Assembly (NCBI GenBank): GCA_041649155.1
Contig: JBAZNP010000001.1
Span: 366,564 to 430,563 of the forward strand
Direction: 5' to 3'
Length of the DNA stretch: 64,000 bases
Origin: Patescibacteria group bacterium
Lineage (GTDB): Bacteria; Patescibacteriota; UBA1384; XYA2-FULL-43-10; 1-14-0-10-43-13
The stretch's first letter is position 1. Each line of letters starts with the position of its first letter. The position numbers and the translations under genes are program-made. Below the pieces are notes generated by a model. The model did not search any database, had not been told where the DNA came from, and saw nothing but the letters and a program-made list of their open reading frames with translations. Shown piece by piece: positions 1 through 58,096 of the stretch.

Positions 1-83
1 TAAAAGGCAAAGCTAAAAACTTCTTTTCGAAAGAAGCAAAAACTGCCATCGTCGCTTTTATTCTGGAGTGGTGGTGGGCTATT

Positions 84-950: not shown

Positions 951-952
951 TT

Positions 953-3900: not shown

Positions 3901-6900
3901 TGAGCTTAGTTTGCCTCAAAATTCACTTTATTATTACGTGCAGAATTTGGAGAAAAAGGGATTATCAGGTCAAGACGCTTTCTATCAATCGATCGGACAA
4001 GCCAAAATTGAAGAGGAATTCGGTATGCCTAGCTTCTATTTCCAAGGGTCTCTCTATAAGATAACCGACAAGCCAGATTTCCAGAACGATCTGGACTCGT
4101 TAATGAAATATAATGGATTCAACCAAGATGATAAACTCTATGATTCAACTAAAGACTATATTTTTCAGGCCAAAACAAAGAATGTAGGGGTATTTAACTA
4201 TTATGTTCAAAAAGCCGAAAACAAATACAGTGAAGGGCTCGCTAAGTATAAAAAAGAAATCAATACTGAAGGAAGCAGCAAAGTAGTCGAGAGCACCCTG
4301 AATGACCTGATTACAAATGTTAAAGCAAACGGATTAACCGACGGAATACGTTCGGCAGAAAATGATTTGCTATTTAGAATGGGAATAGCAGGAAATTTAC
4401 AATCCCTCATGAATGATAGTCCGATTGCCTGGAGTACAGCGAATAAGACCGCCAGTGAAATCGACAAGAAGCTATCTCTCGAAGACGGAACCACTAGATC
4501 TCTGTTTACCAGCAGCTTCGTCCCCTTAAACGACGGCAAAGACATTTTAGGTGAAAATGATAAAAAGATTGTTTCCGGCAAACTAGAAATAACAACAAGC
4601 GCAATCAATAAATATCTGGAAGCTTTAAATGGGGATATAGACCCAGATGATCTCACAACAGCAGGCCAGGAAATAACCTATAACTCTTCTAACCCCTACG
4701 CAGCAAAAACCGATGCTTCCACAGATAACTTGTGTACCAGCTTGTTTAATGCCAGCGACAACGGGATCTCCTTGTCAAAGCAATTCGTAAATGATTCTTT
4801 CTGGTTCAGAGACAAAGACGGAATAGTATTTGCCCAAAATCAGGAAAGCGCAAAACAACTAAGAGACCAAAATTCTGACAAAAAAATTACATTTCTAGAG
4901 GAAATTGCCATTGGATTAGCGAAAGTAACAGGGAAAAGCCAAAGTGAAGTTCAGAACGCTTTGTTGGCTTATCTCAAAAACGGCGGTCAGAAAACTCTGT
5001 TCAGCTTTTCTGACGAGCAGTACGAGGCGATGGAGAAAAGTTCAGGCATACCAAAAGACATTCTTCAGAAATTATTTGTACGTCAAAACGCTACCCAAAT
5101 CAACAATTCTCTCTCAGCTTACAAAAAAGCAGTCGGCCAAAGCACAGCTAAAAAAATTATAAATTATAAACTTTTCCAGGGACTAGGGGTGAGTCTAGAC
5201 TCTACTTCATTTGATTCTGACAGCCTATACGAAATAATGAACGGAAATTACAAACCTTTGTATGACATCGGGGCATTATTGATTGATAAAAAATTAAATC
5301 TGCCGACAGGAACGATCACGGATATAACTACGGCCAGCACACAAAAAATGAAAACCTGTGCTTTGGCGGAAGCCGGCGGCGGTATGCTGGGAGGATTAAT
5401 CGGCCTGAACTATGTATCAATGAAAGGCGACATCAGAACAAATCTCGGGCAATCAGTGATAGAAACAACTTTGAACTTGCCGCGAGGCACTTTTAAAGGA
5501 AATTCTCTCGACGAACTAGTTAAGAGCACTTCTCCCGTCAACTTTGTGCTCGGCTTCCAAATTCCAATAGAAGGGGTTGTGTCCAGCGATATAGTTCAGG
5601 GGATATTTGGCACAACTACTGCCAAAATGTCATCCAGCGACATTACTGACACGATGAAACTTAACCAAATTAAAAATTATCTTGAAGTAAAAAGTCTGTT
5701 ATCGAGCTCTGAAAGTAAAGCTGTCTCTAATTTAGACAACAAACTTGAAAGCCAAATCAAACTCATATCAAGCGATTCCTCTAAATGGACTACCAATTTT
5801 CAAAATCGTGTTAAGTTTTTGGACAACATCCTCGGGCTATCTGCCGACACGACAAAAAATATGCTTACGGGGGGGATCAGCCCGAATGCTTATCTGGACA
5901 TGGCAGCAGGCAAGTCGCTTCAAGGCATAGCGGCTCTTAACGTAATTAATATTTTCGACTTAGAAGAATACCAAAGTGCAGCAGCGATGAACTTGGTTAG
6001 AAACTTCGGATCGATGATAACCAATGGACAATATAATGATATCTACTCTTCTCTATCAGATGTATTTAATGTCAACTTGGACGCAAAAGCTGGATTTACC
6101 AAAGGGACAGCCTCTAATGTATTGGGAGACCCAAAAAATGCAGCAAAAATACTTCTGGCAGAAGGAATAAAAAAAGTCGACCAAAGTTTGGGCTTAGACT
6201 CAAATAGCGACACCTCCTTAACCAAGTTATATGATTATCAGCAAACAAATCTTGAGCAATGCAAGGCATCAATTTTACAACCAGAGCAAGAAGCTGCGCT
6301 GAAAGACGAGGAAATCCAACTTAAATTGCCAAACTTGACCACAAATAATGATGCGAGATTAGCCGAGATATCAAACACAAGATCCACCGCTAACCAGAGC
6401 TACAATGATTGCAAAACGCAATCCATAGAAGAAGCCACAACTTCATCCCATCTCATATTCAGAACTGCAGTGAACGATAAAATTTCATCCGCAATATCCA
6501 ACAAGATTTCTGAAATTACACAGGGCACTATTATTATGCCGAAAGAAGATGTCAGCAACTTCATTAAAAACGGCGATATGAAATATTTCGAAACAATAGG
6601 ATTGGCATATGCAGCAAACATAGTATTAAACAAAGCGGGCAATAACGAACTTGTGCCTCCAGGGATGAGGATAACCTATAAAGATTTATATCTGGCAACT
6701 TTCGGCGATAGAAACGCTGAAGCAAGTGCCGGAGATGCAGCTGTTTACGCCGATGTAAACAATATAACCTACTCTGACTTCAATACTCCGTACAGATACG
6801 GCGACGTTTGTGGCACGCTTGGAAGCATAGGTTGCCTTAATGCTGATAGCTACTTGAGCATGGATTCTTCCAGTGCATTGCCTCGAGACGAAAGTCAACT

Positions 6901-8431
6901 TGTGGCAGCTAATCAGGCTTCGACAAACGCTATGTACGGCTACAACCCAAGTGACGCGGCTACTGTTAGCACTGCTAGTTCCAAATACCAGACCAAATAC
7001 GGAGACAATCTAACTATCGCCAATAGCGATCAATGTAAACAGGATCCAATGTCTGAAACATGTCAAAAAGCTGCAGGCGCTTTAACCAATCTTAACAGTG
7101 TAAAGGGTGAAGCACGACAAAAATCGAGACAAACTTTTATCGACGACCTAAAGTACAAAACGACCGACGCTCTTCTCTGGAATCTTGATAAGAACGTCTA
7201 CCCCGGACTTAGTTACGCCCTCTTAAGGGGAGATGCGACAGTAAAGCAAAACGCTATGGCCAACTACATACGAAACGGCATTATGAGAGGGGAACTTTTT
7301 GGCATCGATATTAGTTCTAGATTAAAAAATGTCGGGGAATGGATTAACACTTATGATACTTTTTCCGATCTTACATCAGCAGTATCAAACGGGGGGTTAG
7401 ACAGCTTTTTCCAATCAGGCGGCGGTTATACTGCTCTTAATGACTTCGTCAACAATAACTCAAAGAACTGGTTTGGCTTTGATATGCCGGAAAATATGCT
7501 TGGAGGCTTGACCGTCGGTTTATCTACGGGCGTTTGGGACGCTAGCAAATTAGACCTCTCAGATTCAAGACTTATTAAATTTGATGGAGGGATTTATAAA
7601 GGCACAAACGGTAAATTACAGATACCTACCATGACCCAGATTGGCAAAAATTTACTGAACGATAAAATAACAGATCTAAAAAATGGTTTGGAAGGTAAAT
7701 TGTTCTCTTGGACCGACAAAATTCTTGGATGGGACTCAGGAACGGCTTATCAAACATACCAAGCATATGAGAATGTTCAAAAAGCCAGAGAAGCATATAT
7801 AAACATTAAAGATATTTCTGGAGCAGCTAAAGCAAAAGCAGCAGCAGATTATGATGCAGCCAAAGCTCAATTAATTACATTCGTAGTCACTACAGTTTTT
7901 TCAAAACAGATAGCTGCAGCAGAAGAATCACTTGGTTTGGTTTCAGGGACAGGCTCAATGCTTGCAACGATGCTTATCACTGGTTTCAACCCCATAGGCT
8001 TGATTACGTTTGTCGGAATGAATTTATTTATGGTTTATAAGGTAGAGCTAAAATGTAGCGCGGATGGTTATTATCCAGAAATGCAGGCCGGAACTTCTTC
8101 AAATGTGGTTGATGTAACAGGATTGGGAGTATGGAACGGGATGAGTCAAGAAACCTCAAAAAAGAAGTCCATTGAAGCGGCCCAGTATAAAGCAAGCCGA
8201 TTGATCGGAGACGTACTGTCAATGCAGGACAGCCCTAAATACGCCGACGTAATTCCAAGTCAGATTATGACTGGACGACAAGAGGATGTTGATTTATGGG
8301 ACCCTGCAATCACATATTACCTATGCTCAAAACTCGGCAACACTTCTATAAAGGGAATTTGTGGAGGAAATACAAGAGCTGGAGTGTGGGAGAATCCACA
8401 AACAGTAGCTCTGACACATATAGGATTTTAG
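953..8431 (+). CDS. Giant (2492 aa) secreted/surface protein. N-terminal signal peptide, Ser/Thr/Asp-rich low-complexity segments, internal LNLPxGT repeats, an SAHSEGKAID (SxHxxGxAxD) motif, and two C-terminal TM helices followed by a Cys-containing tail
   Basis: Single uninterrupted 7479-nt ORF. Signal-peptide-like N-terminus MKNFLKNFLILTICFSTTFG. Hydrophobic helices near residues 2290-2340. Terminator hairpin plus T-run at 8578-8604. Confidence 0.75.
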   Translation: MKNFLKNFLILTICFSTTFGNYFAFFTPQKTSAAETTTAKQGDGEASETPDDSNLTDKETIPIEAQTLTQHVYNSQINTNGFEDINDLFASSSDPKIILNADDASAVRSLSCMSSLIPNFATNTKKLFEILPSSSRPSTEAELSALKLSNSDKFYSLVSQAQNIWYENNEGFILNDMSTLECLSGLSANEIVDLRARDPQQLTTIINDSKESLTIDIRVLKTLIYLVTPKNQGGAGHYRIKVARIRTGYTSKSRQTSRESNYIVDQLNSSTTTTTSSSDLSGETAAEIGMNRDISSSDSYDLDGTNATAIVEDENGDEYDAYINDQLQNEDESTDSSTSSDKTEKNISAHSEGKAIDISEVDDIRCTLIERKRVGHTSKTSYSQRPIKLAWQTQEGYAESGGYDGGDLGQLFKESASDEIRSLIEELGGDPSNYDGDLSQGNFSDIVQVIGKSLFSQIINSPSSNFSGYDFQDTLQKIGSVYFADLLGLEKEIFVDQDITSLDDLQRVVGQAALEERLNLPFGTFTGDTLEDTLLNIGQRKIEYEMGLNSSSLNSLLNDNTQSLPLIVGEAAIEKALSLKEGSFTGNSFSELKKNVGEIKGKTIFIDTTYPDNILHLDSGTTNKLVSGQLSPIAYTTLVGQTRLDDTAYGFKYLSTHESAYNLPEGTWSNALLGKKDALKTIGVNTISKAFATDDEQRTAMEKWLISNTAKNSDDDCTINLYPEVNITVKDEDKTVAILEDNAIEAGLATGDFYKMFGCAKSNPASVFEKTGSKILYYALANYDSSSEEKFKIDLMDTNSEYKLLQNDQLEFYLPRIQEMNTTTNRITSNWEDQSSQLDYQPIMASLSHIKSIVGDSKYYSNKNTIQTASKKISIEIGILKSIFEKDQKEHQELKNKINSTHIDINRLTTLSSEILEGRIVPSTENIQLSQIPASGLTSDAEQYSESSSASGKTGKVGIMLLLARKIDPKDFFLSVGTDKTETELSLPQNSLYYYVQNLEKKGLSGQDAFYQSIGQAKIEEEFGMPSFYFQGSLYKITDKPDFQNDLDSLMKYNGFNQDDKLYDSTKDYIFQAKTKNVGVFNYYVQKAENKYSEGLAKYKKEINTEGSSKVVESTLNDLITNVKANGLTDGIRSAENDLLFRMGIAGNLQSLMNDSPIAWSTANKTASEIDKKLSLEDGTTRSLFTSSFVPLNDGKDILGENDKKIVSGKLEITTSAINKYLEALNGDIDPDDLTTAGQEITYNSSNPYAAKTDASTDNLCTSLFNASDNGISLSKQFVNDSFWFRDKDGIVFAQNQESAKQLRDQNSDKKITFLEEIAIGLAKVTGKSQSEVQNALLAYLKNGGQKTLFSFSDEQYEAMEKSSGIPKDILQKLFVRQNATQINNSLSAYKKAVGQSTAKKIINYKLFQGLGVSLDSTSFDSDSLYEIMNGNYKPLYDIGALLIDKKLNLPTGTITDITTASTQKMKTCALAEAGGGMLGGLIGLNYVSMKGDIRTNLGQSVIETTLNLPRGTFKGNSLDELVKSTSPVNFVLGFQIPIEGVVSSDIVQGIFGTTTAKMSSSDITDTMKLNQIKNYLEVKSLLSSSESKAVSNLDNKLESQIKLISSDSSKWTTNFQNRVKFLDNILGLSADTTKNMLTGGISPNAYLDMAAGKSLQGIAALNVINIFDLEEYQSAAAMNLVRNFGSMITNGQYNDIYSSLSDVFNVNLDAKAGFTKGTASNVLGDPKNAAKILLAEGIKKVDQSLGLDSNSDTSLTKLYDYQQTNLEQCKASILQPEQEAALKDEEIQLKLPNLTTNNDARLAEISNTRSTANQSYNDCKTQSIEEATTSSHLIFRTAVNDKISSAISNKISEITQGTIIMPKEDVSNFIKNGDMKYFETIGLAYAANIVLNKAGNNELVPPGMRITYKDLYLATFGDRNAEASAGDAAVYADVNNITYSDFNTPYRYGDVCGTLGSIGCLNADSYLSMDSSSALPRDESQLVAANQASTNAMYGYNPSDAATVSTASSKYQTKYGDNLTIANSDQCKQDPMSETCQKAAGALTNLNSVKGEARQKSRQTFIDDLKYKTTDALLWNLDKNVYPGLSYALLRGDATVKQNAMANYIRNGIMRGELFGIDISSRLKNVGEWINTYDTFSDLTSAVSNGGLDSFFQSGGGYTALNDFVNNNSKNWFGFDMPENMLGGLTVGLSTGVWDASKLDLSDSRLIKFDGGIYKGTNGKLQIPTMTQIGKNLLNDKITDLKNGLEGKLFSWTDKILGWDSGTAYQTYQAYENVQKAREAYINIKDISGAAKAKAAADYDAAKAQLITFVVTTVFSKQIAAAEESLGLVSGTGSMLATMLITGFNPIGLITFVGMNLFMVYKVELKCSADGYYPEMQAGTSSNVVDVTGLGVWNGMSQETSKKKSIEAAQYKASRLIGDVLSMQDSPKYADVIPSQIMTGRQEDVDLWDPAITYYLCSKLGNTSIKGICGGNTRAGVWENPQTVALTHIGF

Positions 8432-8550
8432 CTGCTGCTAATTTAAAATTTTCAATTTAGAATTTAAAATGAATTATTAATTTTTTAATGTTTAAACATT
8501 TAGATTTTTAAATTGAATTTATAATTTGTAAATTATAAATTTTAAATTTA

Positions 8551-8823
8551 CTAGTTAGTATTAACTATTCTTAAATTTCGGACGATCTTTCGTCCGATTT
8601 TTTTATTGAGATAATCTATCAAATCTTCCGACAGCATTTGTAGCTCCGAAGCCTCAGAAGAAGACATCGCAGAAACCTTTAAAACGCCCCCAGAAAAAGA
8701 AATTGGGGCTACAGACATCTTGCCCCAGTTTTCAACATAAAAACAAATCTGGGCGCTTTCTGTGGTCTTGGCGAGGCCCTTCTTTGCCAGACTTGCCCTT
8801 AAAATTTTATCTAATTTTTCCAT
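8551..8823 (-). CDS. DUF721 (YaaB/RemB-like) small protein typically found next to recF
   Basis: 90 aa. Pattern ...W..M.V.P.SF.GGVLKV...SS.A.ELQ... and position immediately downstream of recF. Confidence 0.55.
   Translation of the reverse strand: MEKLDKILRASLAKKGLAKTTESAQICFYVENWGKMSVAPISFSGGVLKVSAMSSSEASELQMLSEDLIDYLNKKIGRKIVRNLRIVNTN
8578..8604 (+). terminator. Rho-independent terminator for the giant gene (tcggacga-tctt-tcgtccga + T7). Lies inside the convergent DUF721 coding 3' end
   Basis: Perfect 8-bp stem, 4-nt loop, run of 7 T. Confidence 0.55.
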
Positions 8824-8873
8824 GCTTGCTATTAGAAACTAGTTTATTTAAATATAATCTTACTGCTCGCTCT

Positions 8874-8903
8874 GTCATTCCCGCGAAGGCGGGAATCTAC
8901 TAA
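8874..8903. repeat. Short hairpin repeat, family H (gtcattcccgc-GAAG-gcgggaatctactaa)
   Basis: Perfect 8-bp stem with GAAG loop. Same unit recurs at 13766, 14114, 14162(inv), 25108(inv), 42044. Confidence 0.7.
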
Positions 8904-8999
8904 TGGTAAAAACTATCTTGTATCCACGGGCCATGGCGTTGCCTGCCCGAGGATGACGCAAGAAGAAAGGTTCGCCCCCAGCCCTCCACCCTCTGCCTT

Positions 9000-10073
9000 C
9001 TACTCTCTACTTGCTTTAATCTCAATAACTTTTGATTTTTTTAATAATTCCGGCGATAGATGGTCTGCTTCTGTTGAAGTAATTAGAGTTTGATACTGAG
9101 ACACAAGCTCGCCTAAGTGAGACCGCCTCTCCGGATCAAATTCAGAGAAAATATCATCCAAAAGAAGTATTGGTTTATCCATATCTTCCCCCGCTGCTAG
9201 ACCTTGTTCTTTAATTTTTTCCATATATTTAAGCTCAGAAATCTTCAGTGCCAGAATAGCAGATCTAATTTCTCCCCTCGAGGCAAAATTAGCCATGTTG
9301 CGGCCGTTCAACTCAAATACTACATCATCACGATGCGGGCCAACAAGGGATCTTCCGGAAGATATTTCCCTATATCTAAGTCGGTCTAAAACATCAGCTA
9401 AATCACCTTCAAAATTCTGACAATAAATCATTTTAAGATCCGCACCAAAATCACCAGAAATAGATCTGTAAAGATCAGGTAAAAATTCATTTATTTCATC
9501 AGCAGCCTTTTTTCTTCTCTTAATTATCAACTCTCCAAACTTGACCAGCTCCTTATCCCAAAAACTCATCTCCTGCTCGCTTGCCTGTCTTTTATTTATT
9601 CTTTGTAATAAATTATTTCTCTGTTGTTTAACTTTTTTATAACTGACTAAAGCTTCTAGATATTCTCTATCAACCTGACTTATCATTACGTCTAAAAATC
9701 GGCGTCTATCTGAAGGCGAACCGGAAATTATCGAAATAGTCTCTGCAGAAAAAACAACTGTGGGTAAAATTCCGACAAAGTTAGACAATTTTCGAACCAC
9801 TCCTTTTTCTTTAGCCTGCATGAAAAGGCGCGGCGTTCTGGTTAAAAAAATTTCCAGATTGTCCCCGCTTATTCTCGCATAATCAGAATTAAAATTAATC
9901 AAATTTTTCTTGTCATCTTCGCGAAATGAACGGCAGAAAGAAAGTAGAGCCACTGCCTCTAAAATATTACTTTTGCCAGCGCCGTTTAGCCCGACTAAAA
10001 CAGTGACCTGATCAAAATCAATTTCAAATTTCTGATGATTGCGAAAATTTTCTAGTTTAAGTCTTTTAAACAC
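9000..10073 (-). CDS. recF: DNA replication and repair protein RecF
   Basis: N-terminus MFKRLKLENFRNH...VLVGLNGAGKSNILEA (Walker A). 357 aa. Synteny dnaA-dnaN-recF. Confidence 0.9.
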   Translation of the reverse strand: MFKRLKLENFRNHQKFEIDFDQVTVLVGLNGAGKSNILEAVALLSFCRSFREDDKKNLINFNSDYARISGDNLEIFLTRTPRLFMQAKEKGVVRKLSNFVGILPTVVFSAETISIISGSPSDRRRFLDVMISQVDREYLEALVSYKKVKQQRNNLLQRINKRQASEQEMSFWDKELVKFGELIIKRRKKAADEINEFLPDLYRSISGDFGADLKMIYCQNFEGDLADVLDRLRYREISSGRSLVGPHRDDVVFELNGRNMANFASRGEIRSAILALKISELKYMEKIKEQGLAAGEDMDKPILLLDDIFSEFDPERRSHLGELVSQYQTLITSTEADHLSPELLKKSKVIEIKASRE

Positions 10074-10110
10074 AGCTTACCAAATTCTAAATTGAAAATT
10101 TTAAATTAAT

Positions 10111-18408: not shown

Positions 18409-18771
18409 ATGAATAAAATAACAACATTTAAAGATTTAGTTGTTTGGCAAAAGTCACATCAGTTAACACTTTTAGTTTATAAAGCAGTTGCGCGATTTCC
18501 ACGTTTTGAAGAATTTGGGTTATCTAGTCAGATGAGAAGATGCTCGTCATCCGTTCCATCGAATATTGCAGAGGGATTTAAAAAGAATTCGACAAAAGAC
18601 AGCCTTCATTTTTATAATATTGCAGAATGTTCTTTGGAAGAATTAAAATATCAACTAATTTTAGCTAGAGATTTGAGCTATATTGATAATAATGGATACG
18701 ACACACTTGATAGTTTAGCGGAAGAAGTCAGTAAAGTGCTTTACGGCTGGATAAAAAGCCACAAACAGTAG
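18409..18771 (+). CDS. Four-helix-bundle protein (TIGR02436-type, 23S rRNA intervening-sequence protein family)
   Basis: FKDLVVWQKSHQL...FPR.EEFGLSSQMRR...SVPSNIAEG...LEEL. Flanked by inverted ACAGATAACAG-type motifs at 18387-18408 and 18772-18806. Confidence 0.7.
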   Translation: MNKITTFKDLVVWQKSHQLTLLVYKAVARFPRFEEFGLSSQMRRCSSSVPSNIAEGFKKNSTKDSLHFYNIAECSLEELKYQLILARDLSYIDNNGYDTLDSLAEEVSKVLYGWIKSHKQ

Positions 18772-18805
18772 CTGTAATCTGTCTAACTGTTATCTGTATA
18801 CTAGC

Positions 18806-19111
18806 CTAGATTCCTGCCACGAACCATCCTGCCGCTCTTAGTATTACAAACGACAGGGCGACTACAATTATCCCGATTATTGCGTTTATGAGTCCTTGCT
18901 GGGCTTTTTTTGATTGTTCTGGATTGCCGCCAGCTGTGATATAGGATATGCCGGATACTACTAAAAATATAAAAGCCAGAACGCCGGCGATATATAAGAG
19001 CCAAGTGGTGATCAGCGTAACTAATCCAAAAATAGTCACCGGTGTTAATGCGACGTTTATTGCTCCGACCAGCTGCTCTCCTGTAATTGTGACAAGCGGG
19101 AAGATTGGCAT
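18806..19111 (-). CDS. Small pilin-like protein with conserved module ...AFIFLVVSGISYITAGGNPEQSKKAQ...IIGIIVVALSFVI (TrbC/VirB2-like T4SS_pilin-type; family assignment by memory)
   Basis: 101 aa, two hydrophobic helices. Paralog of 19420, 19778 C-term, 20976 C-term, 22198. Confidence 0.6.
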   Translation of the reverse strand: MPIFPLVTITGEQLVGAINVALTPVTIFGLVTLITTWLLYIAGVLAFIFLVVSGISYITAGGNPEQSKKAQQGLINAIIGIIVVALSFVILRAAGWFVAGI

Positions 19112-19145
19112 CTTTTAGTTTTAAGAATATTTAAAAATTACTAAT

Positions 19146-19298
19146 TGTCATTCCCGACCTGCCTGCCGGCAGACAGGCTTGTATCGGGAATCCAGAAATG
19201 ACACAGGCAGCCCAACTCTCTGGATCCCAGATCTCCCATTCGACAAAGCTCAGGGCCTGAGTGAAATCGAAGGCAAGCTTGCAGTCTGGGATGACGAC
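19146..19298. repeat. Composite family P/M repeat (tgtcattcccgac-ctgcctgccggcagacagg-...-ggaatccagaaatgacacaggc...ctctggatcccag...gtctgggatgacga)
   Basis: Shares the palindrome module with 11266 and 36099, and the ggat-ccagaaatgac / ctggatccc modules with 48223 and 29841. Confidence 0.7.
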
Positions 19299-19419
19299 AA
19301 GTGTAGTAACAGTCATAATTTAATCATCCTCTCTGGCTAAAATCTTTATGAAATATTATATTTGGTAAACAAAAAATGCCCCCGAGAGAGCATTTTCTTA
19401 AGAATCATTTTTTAATTAA

Positions 19420-19749
19420 TTACTGTATGGTGCCGCTGCTAGCAGTGTTGCTGACAGCAGTAAGTATAACATATGCTAATACAACTATAACGATACCAAT
19501 AACAGAGTTGATTATCCCTTGTTGCCCTTTTTTGGCCTGTTCTGCATTTCCGCCTGCCGTAATGTAAGTTATGCCTGAAACAACTAGATAAATAAAAGCT
19601 AAAACGCCGACGATGTATATGATCCATGTAATTACATTGTTTACTATATCTCCAATATTGGAGTTGGTGCTACTTATAGAAATGGCGGTTCCCAATTGAT
19701 TAGCATCCGGTGATTGTGCGTAAACTTTTTCAATTAAACTTGTTAACAT
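19420..19749 (-). CDS. Small pilin-like protein (same conserved module)
   Basis: 109 aa; ...AFIYLVVSGITYITAGGNAEQAKKGQQ... Strong SD AAGGAGGAG upstream. Confidence 0.6.
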   Translation of the reverse strand: MLTSLIEKVYAQSPDANQLGTAISISSTNSNIGDIVNNVITWIIYIVGVLAFIYLVVSGITYITAGGNAEQAKKGQQGIINSVIGIVIVVLAYVILTAVSNTASSGTIQ

Positions 19750-19777
19750 TCTCCTCCTTAATTAAAGCGAGCATGGG

Positions 19778-20968
19778 TTATTGAAAAATACTTTCAATTA
19801 TTTTCATTATTCCTATTGCTACACCTATAACAATTACTCCTATAACCGACCATAGAAGAGTTTTTTTGGCCAGTTCAGCCTTACTCTCCTCTCCATAGGA
19901 AGTTAAATAAATTATTGATGCATACAGTATCATTATAAAGGCAACCACTGCACTAATGTCAAGAAGCCAGCTGATCAAAGTCGTTACCATGCAAAGAATT
20001 TGATCTAAATCTTTCTTTGAGCTACAGGTGTTAAGAAGATTCTTGATATTAAAGTTGTTTAAACCAGAAACAGAAACAGCTTTAGCGTCACTATCGTTTG
20101 TGGCGACTTCCGCTACTGTAACCTTATATTCGGTATGATTATTATTAGTCCCTAAAACGCCGGGATAAACCTCCACGATAATTGTGTGAGAACCTGTATC
20201 GGTGCCGCCTGTGTCCCATTCTACTGTGACAGGTACATTGTCATCCGGCACAGTCCCAGATCCTTTTAAATGGTCATCTGTATTTTGATCGATATAAACT
20301 TTATAAGTCTGCCCTTCTAGATCAAAAAATTTGACCTTTATGCTGGCAGTATCCCCTTTTTTGACATTATTCGTATCGGGTGTTATGACAATGCCTTCAG
20401 TTTCAGCAATATCAAAGTTGTAGTCTTCGATTTGAAAGTTAGAGCAATTCCTAACCTTGTCATCTATAACAAACCTTAAGTCATAATTGCCTGCTGAACC
20501 ATAATCGCCAGCATTAATCGGCTTTGGAATTGTGAACTCTCCAACGCGATCTTCTTCCGGTCTAATGACGCCGTCGGCTATTAATTTATAGACGCTTCCA
20601 GATTGAGGATCATCCTGACCGTTCCATAGATAAATTCTATAATTATAGATTACCTGATTTGTTCCAAGAGGATCCGCATTTGAACCGTTGCTTTTTTTGC
20701 CCAGCACTGCTCCAGTTTTGTATTCTGTATCTTCGGGTTGCTTGATTTCATAGGCGACAGTTTGTCCAGCAAAAAGTTTTCTGGAGTCTGGAAATTGAAC
20801 AGTAATATCAAGATCTTCCGTTACGGTGCAGGAAGAGTTAAAAGAGGTATCGGCGTCTTCAGCAAAAACTTGCGACGAGTTAGTAAGAGAAAGAGTGTAA
20901 ATTACAGAAAATATAAAAGAAGCAATCAGAAATCCAACGTAAGTAAATTTTATTATATTTTTTTTCAT
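19778..20968 (-). CDS. Secreted protein with about 300-aa N-terminal ectodomain fused to a C-terminal pilin-like module
   Basis: Signal peptide. C-terminus ...VAFIMILYASIIYLTSYGEESKAELAKK...VIGVIVIGVAIGI. Confidence 0.6.
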   Translation of the reverse strand: MKKNIIKFTYVGFLIASFIFSVIYTLSLTNSSQVFAEDADTSFNSSCTVTEDLDITVQFPDSRKLFAGQTVAYEIKQPEDTEYKTGAVLGKKSNGSNADPLGTNQVIYNYRIYLWNGQDDPQSGSVYKLIADGVIRPEEDRVGEFTIPKPINAGDYGSAGNYDLRFVIDDKVRNCSNFQIEDYNFDIAETEGIVITPDTNNVKKGDTASIKVKFFDLEGQTYKVYIDQNTDDHLKGSGTVPDDNVPVTVEWDTGGTDTGSHTIIVEVYPGVLGTNNNHTEYKVTVAEVATNDSDAKAVSVSGLNNFNIKNLLNTCSSKKDLDQILCMVTTLISWLLDISAVVAFIMILYASIIYLTSYGEESKAELAKKTLLWSVIGVIVIGVAIGIMKIIESIFQ

Positions 20969-20975
20969 TATTGTC

Positions 20976-22190
20976 CTATTTCGGGCCGCTCCAAAAGTTT
21001 GCTGCGATTGTTTGTATGGTTAAAGATAATGTTGCGGCCACAATACCAATGATGGAGTACATTAGTGCTTTTTTTGCTTTTTCCGCTTTGGCTGTGTCTC
21101 CGCCTGCGGTTATGTATTGAATGCCGCTTATCATAATGCCAATAAATGCTAAAACTCCGATTGCCCATTCGAGCAATTCTACTATTAACAAGGCTAAGTC
21201 CCCGATTCCATTGATTTCGCTATGGAGAGGAAAGCCCGATGCTAATTTTGCTAAAACAGTAGAAAAATTATTCGGAACTGTTAATTTATCCGTGTCTGTG
21301 CTGCTTCCCTCTGACCCAGGAGTTTGTCCTTCGCTTCCTGAAATGTTTACGGTTATTTCTGCTTGACCTGTCATCGGGCTATCTGTGCCGGCATCAATGA
21401 AAGTCTTTATCCTGACTTTATGATAAATACAAGTTTTTTCTTGCGGCGACCAGGGCATTTCTATATAACCTGACGCCGGATCTGGATCGGCGGATATTAT
21501 TTGAGCATCCTGCATTTTATCGATATAATTGCCGGCGCAGTCTGTAATCCAAATATGGTAAACTTCATCGGCATGGCCGGAAAAACGATATTTTATCATG
21601 GTTGACGCATCAGTATTGTCAGTGCCATCAGAATTTTTAAGATTGATTGTTTCGGGATCAGCCGACAATTCAATTTCGCCATGCAGCGCAACAGCACCAT
21701 TATTAGTAAAGCTAAAGCTCTGTATCTGGTCTGATAAAACATTATATTTGCAACCGGTAGTTAGATTTTCATAACTTACCACTGCTTTATAGTCTCCGGC
21801 TTCACTAATCGGTATCACAACTGGGTTCGGGCTAAATCCGTTTGAAAATCCTGGTTCTGCCTCTCCGTATGATGTGTAAATATCATTTTCGTAATAATTA
21901 TTATAATTGTCGTAACCCACTTTCCTGATTTCGATTTTGTATTTTATCTTATTATTTATATCTAGTTTATTTAATGAGAGGGTAACTTTTTTTGTTACAT
22001 CTTCACTCGGTATTAAGGTGTATGTGGCTGGAGCTGAAGAATCGCAGGCAGCTTTAACTCTCATCGACTCATTAGGCGCGAAGAGATTTATTGCGGCAGC
22101 AATGAGTAGAGTAGTATTAAAAATTATTGCGAATGTTCCAATTGCAATAAGAGCGGAAGCGGTTCTTTTTACTATTCGATAATGTTTCAT
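20976..22190 (-). CDS. Secreted protein with about 320-aa N-terminal ectodomain fused to a C-terminal pilin-like module
   Basis: C-terminus ...LAFIGIMISGIQYITAGGDTAKAEKAKK...IIGIVAATLSL. 7-nt gaps to both neighbours (operon). Confidence 0.6.
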   Translation of the reverse strand: MKHYRIVKRTASALIAIGTFAIIFNTTLLIAAAINLFAPNESMRVKAACDSSAPATYTLIPSEDVTKKVTLSLNKLDINNKIKYKIEIRKVGYDNYNNYYENDIYTSYGEAEPGFSNGFSPNPVVIPISEAGDYKAVVSYENLTTGCKYNVLSDQIQSFSFTNNGAVALHGEIELSADPETINLKNSDGTDNTDASTMIKYRFSGHADEVYHIWITDCAGNYIDKMQDAQIISADPDPASGYIEMPWSPQEKTCIYHKVRIKTFIDAGTDSPMTGQAEITVNISGSEGQTPGSEGSSTDTDKLTVPNNFSTVLAKLASGFPLHSEINGIGDLALLIVELLEWAIGVLAFIGIMISGIQYITAGGDTAKAEKAKKALMYSIIGIVAATLSLTIQTIAANFWSGPK

Positions 22191-22197
22191 TGTGAAA

Positions 22198-22566
22198 TTA
22201 TTTTACTCCTAAAAAATTCAGAATGGCGTCAATCAATAAAAGCATAATAAATCCCAGAATCGCCCCAAGAGCTATCTCTTTAGCTTCGCTAATCTGGGTT
22301 TCATTACCTTTTGAGGTAACATATTTTATCCCGGCGTAGATAATCATTAAAGAGGCCAGAGCAAACCCAAGCTTTATCGCATAAACCAGCACGGCTGACA
22401 TATAGGATTTGTATCCTGCAAATTGGGTTTGGCCGTTTACGGTCACGCCTGTTTCCAATGCAAAAACCTTGGAAAATGTTATCGCCGACAAAAAAGAAAA
22501 CGTTTTTACAAAAGAACGGAATTTTTTTAAAAAATAGTTATTTTGAGTAATTTTTGTCTTTTTCAT
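22198..22566 (-). CDS. Pilin-like module protein. Start re-called at ATG 22566 (MKKTKITQ...), SD GGAGG
   Basis: C-terminus ...LASLMIIYAGIKYVTSKGNETQISEAKE...ILGFIMLLLI. Confidence 0.55.
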   Translation of the reverse strand: MKKTKITQNNYFLKKFRSFVKTFSFLSAITFSKVFALETGVTVNGQTQFAGYKSYMSAVLVYAIKLGFALASLMIIYAGIKYVTSKGNETQISEAKEIALGAILGFIMLLLIDAILNFLGVK

Positions 22567-22623
22567 TTCCCCTCCTAGCCCCGTTTGATATCGCAAGCGA
22601 TTATCTAATAGAGGCACTTCCAT

Positions 22624-22694
22624 CCGTCACCCTGAACTTGATTCAGGATTTGGTTACTATTTGTATAGGTTCCAGATCAAGTCTGGAATGACAT
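22624..22694. repeat. Family M inverted-repeat element (gtcaccctgaacttgattcagga ... tccagatcaagtctggaatgac)
   Basis: Related to 29841-29919 and the arms of 19146 and 48223. Confidence 0.6.
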
Positions 22695-22710
22695 GTAATT
22701 AATTTGCTCT

Positions 22711-24063
22711 TTACCAAGTCTCTTTTCTTAATAACTGGGTTATTTTGTCTGAGGCTAAATCAAGGGCAGACTGAGGCTCTTGTGTGCCGGAATTGACGGA
22801 GTCAATTGCAGTATTCATTAACGAATCAAATTCAACAGGATATCTTCCCTTAATTAAGGAGTGCGCTGTAGCCAAAGAAAGTTTTTCCGGATTTGTACCT
22901 GTGCGACTTTTAAGAGAAATGTCATAGCTGGAAGCTTTTTTTGAAGTATAAAGACGATTGGCGGAGCTGAAATCATCTTGGATGCTTTCTCCTGCTAAAG
23001 TCGAAACTAAATTCCAGGATGCAGCTGAATTTTTTGACAACCGGCTTACTCCATAAGCGGTAAATCTCGCATAATCAGTAATTTTACCTGCATCTTCGCT
23101 TAATTGCGGTGCAAATCCCTTTTTGTATTTAAGGCTCGGATATTTTTGAAGCAGTGTGTTTTGAAGGCTTGAATAACCAAAGATCATTGCCACTTTTCCG
23201 TTGGCAAATGCATCTATTGGATCGCCTATAGAATCGTCCCAGCAGTAGTTTTCAGAGCTAGGATCGGCGAAAGAAGTATAAAACTCCAAAGCTCGTGTAC
23301 CCGGATTGTCGTTTGCCCCTGTCGAGGTGTCTTTTGGTAGATTGAAAGTGGCCAATTCTTTGTTGTCCGATAAAATGCTTGTCTCGTTTTGTTTCATCAG
23401 AAGATATAAAATATCTTGAGAATTGGGTATTTTGCTTGTTCCTAGCGCAACCCCAGCCACTCCGTTAGCGCTGATTATGTTTGATGCTTCGACAAAGTCT
23501 GTCCACGTCCCAGGCACATCGAATAGAAGGCTGCTAGCTCTTTTTGTTGTTTCTTTATCGTCTTTATTTGCCTCATTATATGCTTTCAGCGCACTGCTAA
23601 ATATTGTTGGGTTATAGTAAACCATTAGAGGCTCGACTGAAGGCGTTAAAGCATAAATTTTATCATTTATGTAGACCGATTCTTTAACCGATGGAACGTA
23701 TTGTTTGTCTAGGTCCAATTTTTTGGCTGTTGCCTCCGGCATGCTGGCCAATTTTTCTTTATGGCGATATACCCAGTCATTTGGCATTGCCCACACATCG
23801 GGACCGGCTCCGGAAGAGATTGAATTTAAGGCTCGATTCTCATAACCAGAGTCTAACTCCTGCTTTACATACGTAACAGTATATCCTTTATTGCTTTTTT
23901 CAAAATTTTTTATTACAGGCTTCCAAGCGTCTTCTTCCTCGAAGCCCCAGACAACAATAGCCCCGCTGGTTGTGGTTTTCTTTGTACAGCCGGATAAAGT
24001 AGTCGCAAAAATCAGAGCAACCAATAAGTAGCCCACGGTTTTAAATATTTTTTTAGTATTCAT
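22711..24063 (-). CDS. ABC transporter substrate-binding lipoprotein (sugar-type, solute-binding family 1)
   Basis: Lipobox LSGC. 450 aa. No cognate permease adjacent. Confidence 0.65.
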   Translation of the reverse strand: MNTKKIFKTVGYLLVALIFATTLSGCTKKTTTSGAIVVWGFEEEDAWKPVIKNFEKSNKGYTVTYVKQELDSGYENRALNSISSGAGPDVWAMPNDWVYRHKEKLASMPEATAKKLDLDKQYVPSVKESVYINDKIYALTPSVEPLMVYYNPTIFSSALKAYNEANKDDKETTKRASSLLFDVPGTWTDFVEASNIISANGVAGVALGTSKIPNSQDILYLLMKQNETSILSDNKELATFNLPKDTSTGANDNPGTRALEFYTSFADPSSENYCWDDSIGDPIDAFANGKVAMIFGYSSLQNTLLQKYPSLKYKKGFAPQLSEDAGKITDYARFTAYGVSRLSKNSAASWNLVSTLAGESIQDDFSSANRLYTSKKASSYDISLKSRTGTNPEKLSLATAHSLIKGRYPVEFDSLMNTAIDSVNSGTQEPQSALDLASDKITQLLRKETW

Positions 24064-24098
24064 GATAACCCCTCCACATTCAATTTTAAATTTGTAAA

Positions 24099-24986
24099 TT
24101 ATAAATTCTTAGAGATTTCTTTTATGAATTTACCAAATTCCTCGTTTATATCATCACGTTTAAGCGCCATTTCTACATTTGTTTTTAAGTACTCAGTGAT
24201 ATTTCCACAGTCATAATATTTTCCGTTTTTTATTTCAACCGCCATGCAATTTTGACCTTCTTTGCGAAGCTGATTTACGCCGTCAACATAAACCAATTCG
24301 GCGTTGTCGGCTACTTTAACTTCTTTTAGCGCTTTAAATATTTCTGGTGGGAAAACAAAACCGGAAACAATTGCCAAGTTAGACGGTAAATTTTCTGGAC
24401 CTGGTTTTTCAATTAGATCTGAGACTTTTATTACTCCGTTTTCTAATTCTTCCCCTTTTGCATATGCGTATCGTTTTGTGTCCTCTGGCTTGTCTGTCCT
24501 GATTCCGCCCAAAATCATTGTTCCATATTTGTTATATGCTTCAATCAATTGTTTTGTTCTGGAAGGTTCCGCTGATATGAAGTCGTCTCCCCAAAGCACG
24601 ACAAAGGGTTCGTCGCCTACAATCTTTTCGGCAGTTAAGATAGCGTCGCCATTACCTTTCGCCTCTTTTTGACGGACGTAAACAAATTCAGCCAGCTCAG
24701 ATAATCTTTTTATTTTTTCGAGCTGTTCTATTTTGCCTGATTTTTCGAGCTTGGCTTCCAACTCTAAATGCCGGTCAAAATGATCTTCGATCGCTCTTTT
24801 ATGCCAACTTGTCACAAAAATAACTTGCTCTATCCCCGCTTCTGCCAATTCTTCAACGACATATTGTATTACTGGTTTGTCTACAATCGGCAGCATTTCT
24901 TTTGGCATCGCCTTTGAAGCTGGCAAAAAACGAGTGCCATATCCGGCAACTGGAACAACAGCTTTACGTATTTTTTTCATAATCAA
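24099..24986 (-). CDS. galU: UTP--glucose-1-phosphate uridylyltransferase
   Basis: AVVPVAGYGTRFLPASKAMPKEMLPIVDKPVIQYVVEE signature. Confidence 0.85.
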   Translation of the reverse strand: MIMKKIRKAVVPVAGYGTRFLPASKAMPKEMLPIVDKPVIQYVVEELAEAGIEQVIFVTSWHKRAIEDHFDRHLELEAKLEKSGKIEQLEKIKRLSELAEFVYVRQKEAKGNGDAILTAEKIVGDEPFVVLWGDDFISAEPSRTKQLIEAYNKYGTMILGGIRTDKPEDTKRYAYAKGEELENGVIKVSDLIEKPGPENLPSNLAIVSGFVFPPEIFKALKEVKVADNAELVYVDGVNQLRKEGQNCMAVEIKNGKYYDCGNITEYLKTNVEMALKRDDINEEFGKFIKEISKNL

Positions 24987-25607: not shown

Positions 25608-25741
25608 ATTCCTTTTTGAATTACGAAATTACGCTCACCCTCATCAAATTTCTAGGCGCTCTCAAGGCTCCATGCGCCTGCCTGCCGGCAGGCAGGCTTG
25701 CAACCGTCGAAATTTGACAAGGTCTCACAATTTCGTAATTC
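25608..25741. repeat. Family P variant with outer inverted repeat gaattacgaaatt / aatttcgtaattc and central palindrome cgcctgcctgccggcaggcaggc
   Basis: Sequence comparison with the other palindrome-containing copies. Confidence 0.65.
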
Positions 25742-26586: not shown

Positions 26587-26728
26587 GTCATTCCGACTCC
26601 TTGGCTTTGTCCAAGGGTGGAGGAATCTTAAAAATAATTACTATTAAAAGATCCCTCCACTTTGGTCGGGATGACAGAATACATAATAGGGAGATTCCTC
26701 CCCTGATACATCGGGGTCGAAATGACAG
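26587..26728. repeat. Family P composite repeat (gtcattccgactc...ggaggaatc...aaagatccctccactttggtcgggatgaca...ggggtcgaaatgacag)
   Basis: Causes the spurious 45-codon N-terminal extension of ORF 26601. Confidence 0.7.
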
Positions 26729-29158: not shown

Positions 29159-29183
29159 TAGTCTTTGGCAGCATAAATTTATT

Positions 29184-29259
29184 TAAAAGATCCCTCGACT
29201 TCACTCGGGATGACAATAAAATAGGTTGCCACGGTCTCCGTAGCGACCTCGCAATGACA
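29184..29259. repeat. Family P fragment (aaaagatccctcgacttcactcgggatgaca...gcaatgaca)
   Basis: Module shared with 13357, 26587, 34134. Confidence 0.55.
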
Positions 29260-31036: not shown

Positions 31037-31131
31037 TGGAGAGGTCGCATAGTGGCCTAGTGCGCTGGTTTGCTAAACCGGTATATGGTCTAATCACCGT
31101 ATCGAGGGTTCGAATCCCTCCCTCTCCGCCA
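31037..31131 (+). tRNA. tRNA-Ser (anticodon GCT), CCA encoded
   Basis: Acceptor ggagagg/cctctcc, loop ttGCTaa, long variable arm. Confidence 0.8.
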
Positions 31132-31290
31132 GTAAATGTTGCCCAGAATGGGCGATATTTACTGGCGAAAGAAGATTCGAACAGGGAAGGGGTCGGGAAA
31201 CGGGAGTTTCCCGTGCAGGAAAATACTAAAAACCGTCGGTTTTTAGAAGGAGCAACGCTCCGCTCGAGATCCCTCCTTCTCCGCCAAAAA
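31132..31290 (+). ncRNA. Second copy of the tRNA-Ser-trailing structured element. Ends with a copy (31267-31285) of this tRNA's own 3' region
   Basis: About 95% identical to 16412-16540. Substitutions fall in hairpin stems (aaaaaccgaGggttttt vs aaaaaccgTCggttttt; agcgaagcgct vs ggagcaacgctcc). Confidence 0.4.
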
Positions 31291-31382
31291 ATTAGATAAC
31301 AGAACACAGATATCAGATAACAGAATGATTACTATGCTATCTGTTTGGCTGTTATCTGTATTCTTAACACAAGGGAGGGTTT

Positions 31383-34133: not shown

Positions 34134-34270
34134 GTCATTTCGACTCCTCAACTTTGTTCGAGGGCAGACCTGCCTGCCGGCAGGCAGGGAAATCTTATAT
34201 AAATTAAAAAATTATTATCAAAAGATCCCTCCGTTTCAGTCGGGATGACAAAGTGACAGTCGGGATAACA
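34134..34270. repeat. Family P composite repeat (inverted relative to the 36099 copy)
   Basis: gtcatttcgactcc...cctgcctgccggcaggcagg...aaagatccctccgtttcagtcgggatgaca. Confidence 0.75.
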
Positions 34271-36098: not shown

Positions 36099-36210
36099 TG
36101 TCATCCCGACCAGAGTGGAGGGATCTTTAATGTGTCTAATCATAAGATTTCCCTGCCTGCCGGCAGGCAGGTCCGACCGTTAGACAAAGCTCATGGGGTC
36201 GAAATAACAA
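36099..36210. repeat. Family P composite repeat (near-identical to 11266-11382)
   Basis: tgtcatcccgaccagagtggagggatc...ccctgcctgccggcaggcaggtcc...ggggtcgaaataaca. Confidence 0.75.
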
Positions 36211-42043: not shown

Positions 42044-42072
42044 GTCATTCCCGTGAAGACGGGAATCCAAGA
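42044..42072. repeat. Family H hairpin repeat (gtcattcccgtgaagacgggaatcc)
   Basis: Sequence. Confidence 0.6.
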
Positions 42073-42107
42073 TAGTCAATATTCAGAATACAGATAGCAG
42101 CTAAAAA

Positions 42108-48222: not shown

Positions 48223-48313
48223 GTCATTTCAGGCTTGATCTGGAATCTAGAAATTACACAGGCGAATCAACTCTCTGGATCCCAGCTCTCAAGCTTACAG
48301 GCTGGGATGACGA
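48223..48313. repeat. Family M/P composite repeat (ctgtcatttcaggcttgatctggaatctagaaattacacaggc...ctctggatcccag...gctgggatgacga)
   Basis: Shares modules with 19146-19298. Confidence 0.65.
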
Positions 48314-48451
48314 TAGGGGTGAGTGAATGGTTACGCTCTAAATTATTGCCAAAACTAGAGAAAAATGATACATTCTCTCTAGCAAGTTTTATATTCGGAG
48401 ATCGCCATGTCATTCGACGTGGGACGATTGAATTAGATCAAAATTTAATAA

Positions 48452-57929: not shown

Positions 57930-58096
57930 AAACTCAAGTAAATTTATCGTATAAGTGATAAAAAGTCAATAGTGCGAGCTGCGAACAGGCGGTTTAGTTG
58001 TATTATAAAAAAATATGATATAATAAACTAAATGAATGGATCCTGATTGGCCGACTTCGTTGGCTTGGGATGACATAAACATCGAGGATGATTTCT

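Follow-up and report, generated by a model that had tools for sequence, protein, structure and literature searches.

A candidate type IV secretion system pilin array close to the replication origin of a Patescibacteria bacterium, with conserved short pilins and an exchangeable cassette of ectodomain-bearing members

A 64,000-nucleotide (nt) stretch of DNA from a Patescibacteria group bacterium (contig JBAZNP010000001.1, positions 366,564 to 430,563; hereafter the window) contains five consecutive minus-strand genes, here named g1 to g5 (Table 1), whose products end in a common two-helix module, two of them carrying large additional N-terminal domains. The question raised by this locus is to which system the five proteins belong, and what the additional domains could do in it. 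An initial annotation, made from the sequence alone, had listed the five genes, all of which are present exactly as described, and had assigned their module to TrbC/VirB2-like "T4SS pilin" proteins. The reading that we favor, with some reserve, is that of an origin-proximal Patescibacteria type IV secretion system (T4SS) pilin array, in which conserved core pilins are combined with exchangeable, surface-displayed adhesin-pilins.

The C-terminal ~75 residues can be aligned in all five proteins, with the invariant pattern A..I.Y.T..G...G...I and the motif SGIxYITAGG(N/D)...K...IIG, which had already been pointed out in the initial annotation. A local hidden Markov model (HMM) of the module detected these five open reading frames (ORFs) and no others within the window. 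All five proteins exceed the gathering cut-off (26.6 bits) of the Pfam family PF18895 (T4SS_pilin), with 34.8-49.4 bits over profile positions ~3-71 of 71, and two of them are named "pilin" by NCBI; this assignment was thus supported by the Pfam search that had been proposed as its check, where the TrbC family (PF04956) was matched below threshold only. The sub-threshold matches to PF04956 (TrbC/VirB2; cut-off 27.9 bits) were obtained for g2 (17.4 bits) and g3 (15.9 bits), with E values of 0.005-0.015; g1, g4 and g5 gave no match, and the gathering threshold was not reached by any of the five. Several homologs have PF18895 and PF04956 matches together, and a distant relationship of the array proteins to PF04956 is plausible on the basis of these profile matches, rather than established. 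Additionally, NF045849, a pilin-like family of a Mycoplasma integrative and conjugative element (ICE), matched four of the five modules (E values of 1.8e-6 to 3.7e-4; 12.9-27.5 bits, below the cut-off of 40). According to the hydropathy profiles, the module comprises in each case two hydrophobic helices and a short polar loop, that is, a helical hairpin. The small mature size of VirB2-like pilins (~65-80 residues) roughly fits g1, g2 and g5, while g3 and g4 would have ~360 residues after leader removal. A tblastn search of g2 against 72,556 plasmids yielded no match, and therefore no link to known mobile conjugation systems was found at this sensitivity. With five consecutive genes and a virB4 gene within ~20 coding sequences (CDSs), the locus agrees with the definition of Patescibacteria pilin arrays in the survey by Quinonero-Coronel and co-workers (2025; PMC12102498), which asks for two or more PF18895/PF04956 genes that are adjacent or interrupted by a single non-pilin gene, and for virB4 within that distance in the same genome.

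The two long members, g3 and g4, have only the module in common (34% over 67 amino acids (aa) in BLASTP), and no significant BLASTP similarity was detected between their N-terminal regions. In g3, a signal peptide (residues 1-36, ...SSQVFA|EDAD) is followed by beta-sandwich domain 1 (~50-187), domain 2 (193-286), a disordered linker (~287-320) and the pilin hairpin (321-396), whose helices were placed at 321-356 and 361-395 by AlphaFold2 (AF2; mean predicted local distance difference test score, pLDDT, 74). In g4, a signal or anchor helix (~1-40), beta-sandwich domains at ~50-170 and 171-289, a low-complexity linker (290-328) and the pilin hairpin (329-404; AF2 helices 329-361 and 366-400) were delimited. 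The ectodomains thus have the beta-sandwich folds that the initial annotation had expected of adhesins, and no enzyme fold or enzyme family was matched by them. The same annotation had described signal peptides and mutually unrelated ectodomains; this is correct for the sequences, which have no significant similarity, and has to be amended for the folds, since according to the models both ectodomains appear to be tandem immunoglobulin (Ig)-like sandwiches. The fold matches of the g3 and g4 models were of generic Ig-like/CARDB/PKD/MG surface type only, which does not identify a ligand; those of the g4 ectodomain were weak and restricted to tandem sandwiches (arrestin/complement-like). A phmmer search of the g3 ectodomain against 1.84 billion representatives retrieved 17 proteins only, namely PF18895 proteins of 360-472 aa and a few PKD/Big_7 multi-repeat proteins, and the five homologs of g4 all have PF18895. 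Each of the two ectodomains has four cysteines, and the short pilins have none.

The N-terminal signal segment, whether cleaved or uncleaved, places the ectodomain outside the cell. The first module helix would then run from outside to inside, the lysine-containing GG(N/D)xxxxKK loop would be cytoplasmic, and both termini would lie outside. A hairpin with both termini outside and a cytoplasmic loop is the membrane topology of VirB2 and TraA (F-pilin), and in the solved T- and F-pili the N-terminus is on the filament exterior, where a domain fused to it would be exposed. The Ig-like domains of g3 and g4 would be held on a flexible linker of 30-45 residues, N-terminal to the membrane hairpin, and should therefore be displayed on the cell surface. 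Anchoring by sortase or as lipoproteins was considered and ruled out by the absence of the motifs: LPx[TSA]G does not occur in any of the five proteins, and no lipobox [LVI][ASTVI][GAS]C was found in their first 60 residues, the conserved KAAC of g4 having K at position -3.

The second main feature of the array is the replacement of its g5-g4-g3 segment. The window and the contig of a close relative, L015, are collinear (blastn, 75-88%) as far as the stop codon of the gene for the substrate-binding protein (SBP), and collinearity resumes where g2 begins. By blastn, window 19766-22708 has essentially no sequence in common with L015 5987-9295, the lone match of the cassette region being an 85-nt patch of the L015 pilin gene d106 with g2, outside 19766-22708. 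The flanks are well conserved (PilB 88%, four-helix-bundle protein 97.5%, SBP 88%, Hsp20 98% and ComF-like protein 88% identical), and so are the short pilins g1 (87% identical to L015 f101) and g2 (76% identical to L015 e106). The L015 array has the order 404-101-402-106-106-101 aa, and its cassette site (3.3 kb versus 2.9 kb in the window) codes for pilins of 404, 101, 402 and 106 aa. No orthologs of g3, g4 and g5 were found in L015, where their modules match at 30-52% and the best BLASTP E value of the ectodomains is ~0.6. The initial annotation had suggested variation from the diversification of the paralogs, and the whole replacement of this segment in L015 supports this more strongly than the sequence alone could. 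The cassette and its flanks are alike in guanine+cytosine content (0.385 versus 0.395-0.407), and composition therefore gives no hint of a foreign origin.

Two more distant relatives, L001 and the P0003 contig, agree with the window in the flanks and in the short-long-long-short-short sequence of genes, and each window gene is nearest to its positional ortholog there (44-65% identity); for g5, this ortholog is 65% identical in L001, while L015 offers module-level matches only. In the g3 family (17 sequences), the mean identity to g3 is 71% for the module, 35% for domain 2 and 22.5% for the distal domain 1; the corresponding means of the g4 family are 55%, 38% and 23%. Moreover, the g5-type module belongs to proteins of three sizes, namely 122 aa (window), 297 aa (L016) and 404 aa (L015), and the g4-type module is a short pilin of 101 aa in L015. 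As the same module types are long in one lineage and short in another, ectodomains have been gained or lost on them. Long PF18895 proteins (297-804 aa) are present in 11 of the 13 other arrays examined, the exceptions being L012 and L014. Ten long proteins from nine arrays were scanned; their N-terminal 230-600 residues match no Pfam family, and two tandem PF18895 modules were confirmed by Pfam in four of the ten.

Two side observations concern these other arrays. Two-module long proteins of 416-804 aa with four predicted helices are encoded at L008:6302-7552, L009:4090-6336, L010:4871-7201, L011:5204-7618 and L013:5213-7558; both module stretches were recognized by Pfam in four of these five. 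In L016, a gene of 478 aa (4940-6376) with a signal-like N-terminus stands between pilin genes, and its product has neither a pilin module nor a Pfam family.

Table 1. Coordinates of the pilin array and of associated features. Positions are those of the window unless a contig is named; aa, amino acids.
Feature	Position	Strand	Description
g1	18806-19111	-	101 aa; short pilin, "TITGEQL" subtype; PF18895 46.1 bits
g2	19420-19749	-	109 aa; short pilin, N-terminal "LIEKVYA" leader-like motif; PF18895 49.4 bits
g3	19778-20968	-	396 aa; ectodomain-pilin; PF18895 34.8 bits; NCBI name "MAG: pilin"
g4	20976-22190	-	404 aa; ectodomain-pilin; PF18895 36.7 bits at aa 333-392
g5	22198-22566	-	122 aa; pilin with long signal-like leader and hairpin module; PF18895 35.3 bits
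g3 ectodomain and linker	20009-20860	-	aa 37-320; tandem Ig-like (CARDB/PKD/macroglobulin-like) domains
g4 ectodomain and linker	21207-22070	-	aa 41-328; all-beta prediction; no Pfam family
Hypervariable cassette g5, g4, g3	19766-22708	-	flanked by conserved SBP gene and g2
Terminator-like hairpin and U-run	19365-19398	-	immediately 3' of g2; RNA fold
MITE-like repeat element	19146-19304	.	inserted between g2 and g1
T4SS core	L003:1-9998, directly upstream of window position 1		TrbL_3/VirB6-like protein of 945 aa; 296-aa and 105-aa proteins of no family
PilB-like ATPase	16729-18381	+	PF00437, 375 bits; convergent to array; 425 nt away
Four-helix-bundle "23S rRNA intervening sequence protein"/bAvd-like gene	18409-18771	+	between PilB and g1
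Palindromic repeats	8874-8911, 13766-13803, 14114-14151, 42044-42081		
Palindromic repeats	13399-13443, 26632-26676, 29171-29215, 34206-34250		
Palindromic repeats	11309-11348, 25660-25699, 34152-34191, 36135-36174		

The five genes correspond to locus tags WC536_02010-02035 on a 799-kb metagenome-assembled contig of "Patescibacteria group bacterium". From g5, the first gene, down to g1, the intergenic gaps are 7, 7, 28 and 308 nt, which agrees with the small gaps and the repeat before the last gene noted in the initial annotation. The tight operon comprises g5-g4-g3-g2, with g2 as its last gene, and g1 is probably transcribed separately from the other four genes. The ATG of g5 at 22566 is preceded by AGGAGGGG, which contains a GGAGG ribosome-binding site, and the longer reading frame from 22623 has no such site. 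Shine-Dalgarno-like sequences are strong in g2 (AAGGAGG) and g5, more distant in g4, and no more than weak in g1 and g3. The hairpin following g2 has a 12-bp stem and then UUUUUUG in the RNA fold of 19320-19425(-); its designation as terminator-like is tentative, because it was not listed by a terminator pattern scan and the z-score of the whole folded stretch was not significant. A sigma-70 promoter and terminator pattern scan of 18300-24200 gave the same counts as shuffled controls, and was uninformative.

K/R-rich and hydrophobic signal-like N-termini ending in (V/L)FA were identified in g3, g4 and g5, the leader of g5 being MKKTK...FSFLSAITFSKVFA|LETG. Putative (V/L)(F/Y)A sites are thus located after signal-like segments in g3, g4 and g5, and after a 10-residue leader in g2; g1 has none. 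The short homologs were analyzed as a set of 112 proteins of at most 140 aa among the best 120 module matches. Most of them start with a leader-like segment of 10-20 residues that has an AxA-type end and no hydrophobic core; "M..LIE(K/R)xYA" occurs in 59 of the 112, and the g1-type N-terminus "M..F..TITG(E/Q)xLxG" in 13, which are 75-88% identical to g1. The remaining 40 fall into neither leader class, and in most of these the segment ends in an AxA-type site such as KAYA, KAHA or KANA. As an observation in its own right, the short-pilin leader of g2 and of homologs P0030-P0148 is strongly conserved and of an unusual type that has no hydrophobic core.

The genomic setting provides a possible partner for the array. 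The window is chromosomal and origin-proximal, with recF, dnaN, dnaA, rnpA, yidD, yidC, jag, tRNA-Ser and then the plus-strand gene of the PilB-like ATPase; this is followed by the four-helix-bundle "23S IVS" gene (plus strand), the array (minus strand), and genes of an ABC substrate-binding protein, a GalU-like protein and Hsp20. No VirB4, VirB6 or VirD4 gene was found within the 64-kb window. Contig L003 overlaps window 1-18452 at 99.9% identity and reaches 9 kb further upstream (L003 position = window position + 9048), and a T4SS core was identified there. Apart from the proteins listed in Table 1, it encodes a TraC-like protein of 318 aa, a VirB4-type ATPase of 605 aa and a Peptidase_M15_4 protein of 388 aa; a PEGA and beta-propeller protein (415 aa) and a membrane protein of 504 aa, the C-terminal end of which corresponds to window 84-950, are also encoded there. 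Upstream of window position 1, at a distance of 3.4-5.3 kb, is the gene of the VirB4-like ATPase (P-loop_TraG 100 bits, AAA_10, DUF87); counted from this gene, g1 is the 16th and g5 the 20th CDS. This VirB4/VirB6-like cluster, just outside the window, is the relevant partner of the array.

Two further genes of this region should be mentioned. Directly after the T4SS core, a giant plus-strand ORF at 953-8431 encodes 2492 aa with no Pfam match; the exact protein is present on two assemblies, and it has a signal-like N-terminus, a transmembrane-like segment at aa 2336-2354 and an S/T/D/N-rich composition. Its product is possibly a surface protein associated with the T4SS, or a substrate. The bAvd-like gene between PilB and g1 has a 97.5% identical copy in L015 and is missing from the corresponding position of L001 and of the P0003 contig, and was therefore classified as a variable small insert.

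How the array might work can be proposed as follows. The short and conserved g1 and g2, of which g2 bears the leader motif, would be the core structural subunits, and the g5, g4 and g3 proteins, with their Sec-type signal peptides and encoded in an exchangeable 3-kb cassette, would be accessory subunits. Should the hairpins co-polymerise with those of the short pilins in the manner of VirB2, the domains of g3 and g4 would be located on the outer face of a pilus, carried by minority subunits. The ectodomains would most likely serve to bind the host cell that carries the epibiont, and replacement of the cassette between lineages would change host specificity. The most complete version of this proposal, a VirB2-type T4SS pilus of a monoderm candidate phyla radiation bacterium, with a short-pilin shaft, interspersed Ig-like-adhesin subunits and an exchanged cassette that sets the host range, is put forward as doubtful. 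The expression "ectodomain-tipped" pilins in the initial annotation was dropped, since no evidence points to a pilus or to a position at its tip.

Several points weigh against the array being one of pilins and adhesin-pilins. To our knowledge, no pilus of PF18895 proteins has ever been seen. The PF04956 match remains below threshold, and a helical hairpin is too simple to prove homology or polymerisation; a search of the module profile against all PDB sequences gave noise only, so there is no solved relative to which its homology could be anchored. The charge bias of the loop is weak, with a net charge of +1 or +2 in g1, g2 and g4, and of 0 or -1 in g3 and g5. The T4SS core is not contiguous with the array, being 22-26 kb away on the opposite side of dnaA, with oriC and 15 CDSs between. 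A generic Ig-like fold does not establish adhesion, and the AF2 model of g4 is poor (mean pLDDT 55): its beta-sandwich at 171-289 is confident (pLDDT 77-87), its first domain appears to be beyond interpretation in so poor a model, and the segment at its N-terminus may remain uncleaved as an anchor. An ectodomain of ~30 kDa per subunit would be sterically hard to accommodate on a VirB2-type filament, and therefore g3 and g4 would at best be minor subunits. Finally, the comparison with L015 is one with a single close relative, which comes from a metagenome assembly.

Some of these points lead to the main rival explanation, according to which the PF18895 hairpin serves as a mere membrane anchor or as a channel-associated T4SS subunit and never polymerises, g3 and g4 are tethered surface proteins, and the short members are components of the T4SS translocon. 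We regard this as possible, though on balance unlikely. A pilus of Patescibacteria T4SSs is undemonstrated, its formation being called an "intriguing possibility" in a 2025 review (PMC12857230); two hydrophobic helices are found in many anchors, and no relative of the module is solved; besides the steric awkwardness of large ectodomains in a VirB2-type filament, the long homologs with two modules, that is four transmembrane helices, fit an anchor somewhat better than a filament subunit. However, the conservation of the module (55-71%) and its invariant Y.T..G..K loop motif exceed what a mere anchor would need, and the resemblance to both TrbC/VirB2 and the pilin-like protein of the Mycoplasma ICE is consistent, even if sub-threshold. 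Moreover, reduced genomes retain arrays of 3-6 distinct module genes, and in Southlakia such arrays are essential (PMC10633639). That silent and expressed paralogs recombine within the genome, as in Neisseria pilE/pilS, to give antigenic or phase variation might be suspected from the several divergent tandem paralogs and from the analogy to Bartonella and Anaplasma VirB2 drawn in PMC12102498, but it is very improbable: the five genes share no nucleotide repeats of at least 30 nt, the paralogs are only 25-59% identical in protein, and none of the copies lacks a start codon of its own. The order of the genes and their positional orthology are also stable in L001, in the P0003 contig and partly in L016, and the change between lineages is replacement of a whole cassette, not shuffling.

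The initial annotation had also stressed that the array adjoins a PilB-like ATPase, while noting that it is not a standard type IVa pilus (T4aP) pilin operon. The ATPase is present, and its distance of 425 nt from the array, the preservation of this adjacency in L001, L015 and the P0003 contig, and the g2 leader "LTSLIEK", superficially similar to the prepilin FTLIE, could suggest pilins of T4aP or type II secretion system (T2SS) type that are assembled by it. Nevertheless, a class-III signal (G|F/M-T-L-I-E followed by a hydrophobic helix) was found by regular expression in none of the five proteins, no N_methyl or other type IV pilus (T4P) pilin family of Pfam was matched at E values up to 0.1, and the conserved module is C-terminal, not N-terminal. 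The PilB gene is convergent to the array, and the T4P genes of the window (PilM, PilC and PilX_N-like) are located at 58-64 kb. Since the region is syntenic in these relatives, the adjacency carries no functional information; the ATPase belongs to T4P/T2SS machinery, nothing ties it functionally to VirB2-type pilins, and the T4aP reading, which we consider extremely unlikely, was rejected because of the missing prepilin motifs. It can be added that the ATPase gene is ~40 kb from the other T4P genes, PilX_N-like at 58088-59233, PilM at 61162-62166 and PilC at 62261-63469. There is next to no likelihood that some of the ORFs are decaying or non-functional. The suspicion concerns mainly g1, with its weak ribosome-binding site, and with a terminator-like hairpin and an inserted element before it, but all five ORFs are intact and above the PF18895 threshold, a dozen homologs match g1 at 75-88% over its full length, N-terminus included, and its L015 counterpart is also set apart (115 nt) without any element. 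More specifically, it was considered that the repeat insertion had destroyed the leader of g1, which lacks the "IEKVYA" of g2 and of the L001 orthologs; this was ruled out, because the N-terminus of g1 is conserved in 13 homologs, including the one in L015, where the element is absent.

The element in front of g1 had been described in the initial annotation as a repeat similar to a miniature inverted-repeat transposable element (MITE), and it is indeed dispersed. A second copy with ~85% identity and an internal deletion was found at 48238-48320, and the orthologous site of L015 lacks the element (200 nt in the window versus 10 nt). The second copy and the absence from L015 show that this is a true MITE-like insertion. 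The element has terminal inverted ends of the GTCATCCC/GGGATGAC type, and its palindrome CCTGCCTGCCGGCAGGCAGG is common to four other intergenic sites. As separate observations, short dispersed intergenic families of palindromic repeats with GTCATTCCCG/CGGGATGAC-type ends or the palindrome CCTGCCTGCCGGCAGGCAGG occur in the window (Table 1), and one family flanks the gene of a GIY-YIG nuclease (13744-14085). At 16381-16529 and 31101-31249, a direct repeat of 149 nt (96% identity) comprises the 3' end of tRNA-Ser and downstream sequence, with extra partial copies of the tRNA-Ser 3' end after each repeat (16535-16566 and 31261-31292); it resembles the trace left by an element that integrates into genes of tRNA-Ser. 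The dnaN-dnaA intergenic region (11396-11468) contains at least five units of a tandem 14-nt repeat, similar to CTTTCTACCTTCCA, with related copies at 8981 and 59717, and this repeat may be oriC-associated.

The locus bears on the way in which Patescibacteria recognise and exploit their hosts; in the only system tested, the T4SS with its pilin array proved essential. It is the ectodomain-bearing part of the array that is exchanged between close relatives, while the short pilins and the flanks stay; this yields a testable host-range hypothesis, and the correlation of cassette type with host offers a handle for comparative genomics. If the hairpins polymerise, this would be the first VirB2-family filament known to us with large folded domains on its subunits.

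The array type as such, its near-origin position and the idea of paralog versatility have already been published, and the locus is less novel in these respects than the initial annotation assumed. According to PMC12102498, a search with PF18895 and PF04956 for VirB2-like pilins in 1,948 Patescibacteria assemblies detected 441 arrays of 2-11 genes with ~25% mean identity, and the T4SS was often near dnaA, dnaN and rnpA. The same paper states that adhesins of the kind of PrgB were not detected in Patescibacteria. The present locus offers adhesin candidates where that survey reported none; adhesin-like domains may have been overlooked through fusion to the pilin module itself. In the open-access literature searched, no description of ectodomain-fused pilins or of cassette replacement was found. 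In enrichment cultures of Patescibacteria, the genes of unknown function with the highest expression include those of PF18895 proteins (PMC10936435).

The closest known system is that of Southlakia epibionticum, for which the report by Wang and co-workers (2023; PMC10633639) describes a T4SS cluster, including a pilin series, that is essential for epibiotic growth. Both Southlakia SEML1_0014-0019 and the Patescibacteria arrays resemble the present locus in their PF18895 modules, their tandem divergent paralogs, their chromosomal location near dnaA, dnaN and rnpA, and their association with an MPF-FATA-like VirB4 in the absence of outer-membrane components; an Hsp20 neighbor recurs as well. In Southlakia, however, the pilins are contiguous with the T4SS core, whereas here oriC and 15 CDSs separate the array from the VirB4 cluster. 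All Southlakia pilins are ~190 aa or shorter, and the two ~400-aa members with tandem Ig-like ectodomains, located in a replaceable cassette, set the window apart.

The VirB2/TrbC/TraA pilins of the T- and F-pilus have in common with the array proteins a small hydrophobic hairpin, a putative AxA-type leader end and the association with VirB4 and VirB6 genes. In contrast to those of diderm bacteria, the pilins analyzed here belong to a monoderm host, and their short-form leaders of 10-15 residues have no hydrophobic core. We know of no member of the VirB2/TraA family with a folded N-terminal domain of 280 aa. The Mbov_0395 family (NF045849) of the Mycoplasma ICE is an 80-residue hairpin of monoderm, MPF-FATA-type conjugation, nearly the whole profile of which is matched; unlike the array, the Mbov_0395 protein is single-copy, encoded on a mobile element, and without ectodomains.

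Multiple divergent tandem pilin paralogs, as in the window, are also known from Bartonella Trw (TrwL/TrwJ) and from the Anaplasma VirB2 proteins. These paralogs have been read as adaptation to different host surfaces or as antigenic variation. The analogy between them and the Patescibacteria arrays is drawn in PMC12102498. In Bartonella and Anaplasma, the diversity of host binding resides in short pilins and a separate VirB5, while here the presumed binding domains are fused to the module and no VirB5 is present. The type IV minor pilins CofB and TcpB and the hybrid display on phage pVIII are a functional analogy only, in that a polymerisation module carries an appended folded domain, the subunits concerned are a minority among short major ones, and large inserts are tolerated only in mosaic filaments; their protein families and assembly machines are unrelated to g3 and g4. 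Finally, PrgB of pCF10 and the thioester-domain adhesin of Bacillus subtilis pLS20 (PMC8092201) are, as here, surface proteins rich in Ig-like domains that are encoded together with a monoderm T4SS. They mediate cell-cell contact as LPxTG sortase-anchored wall proteins without a pilin module, whereas g3 and g4 are anchored by the PF18895 hairpin.

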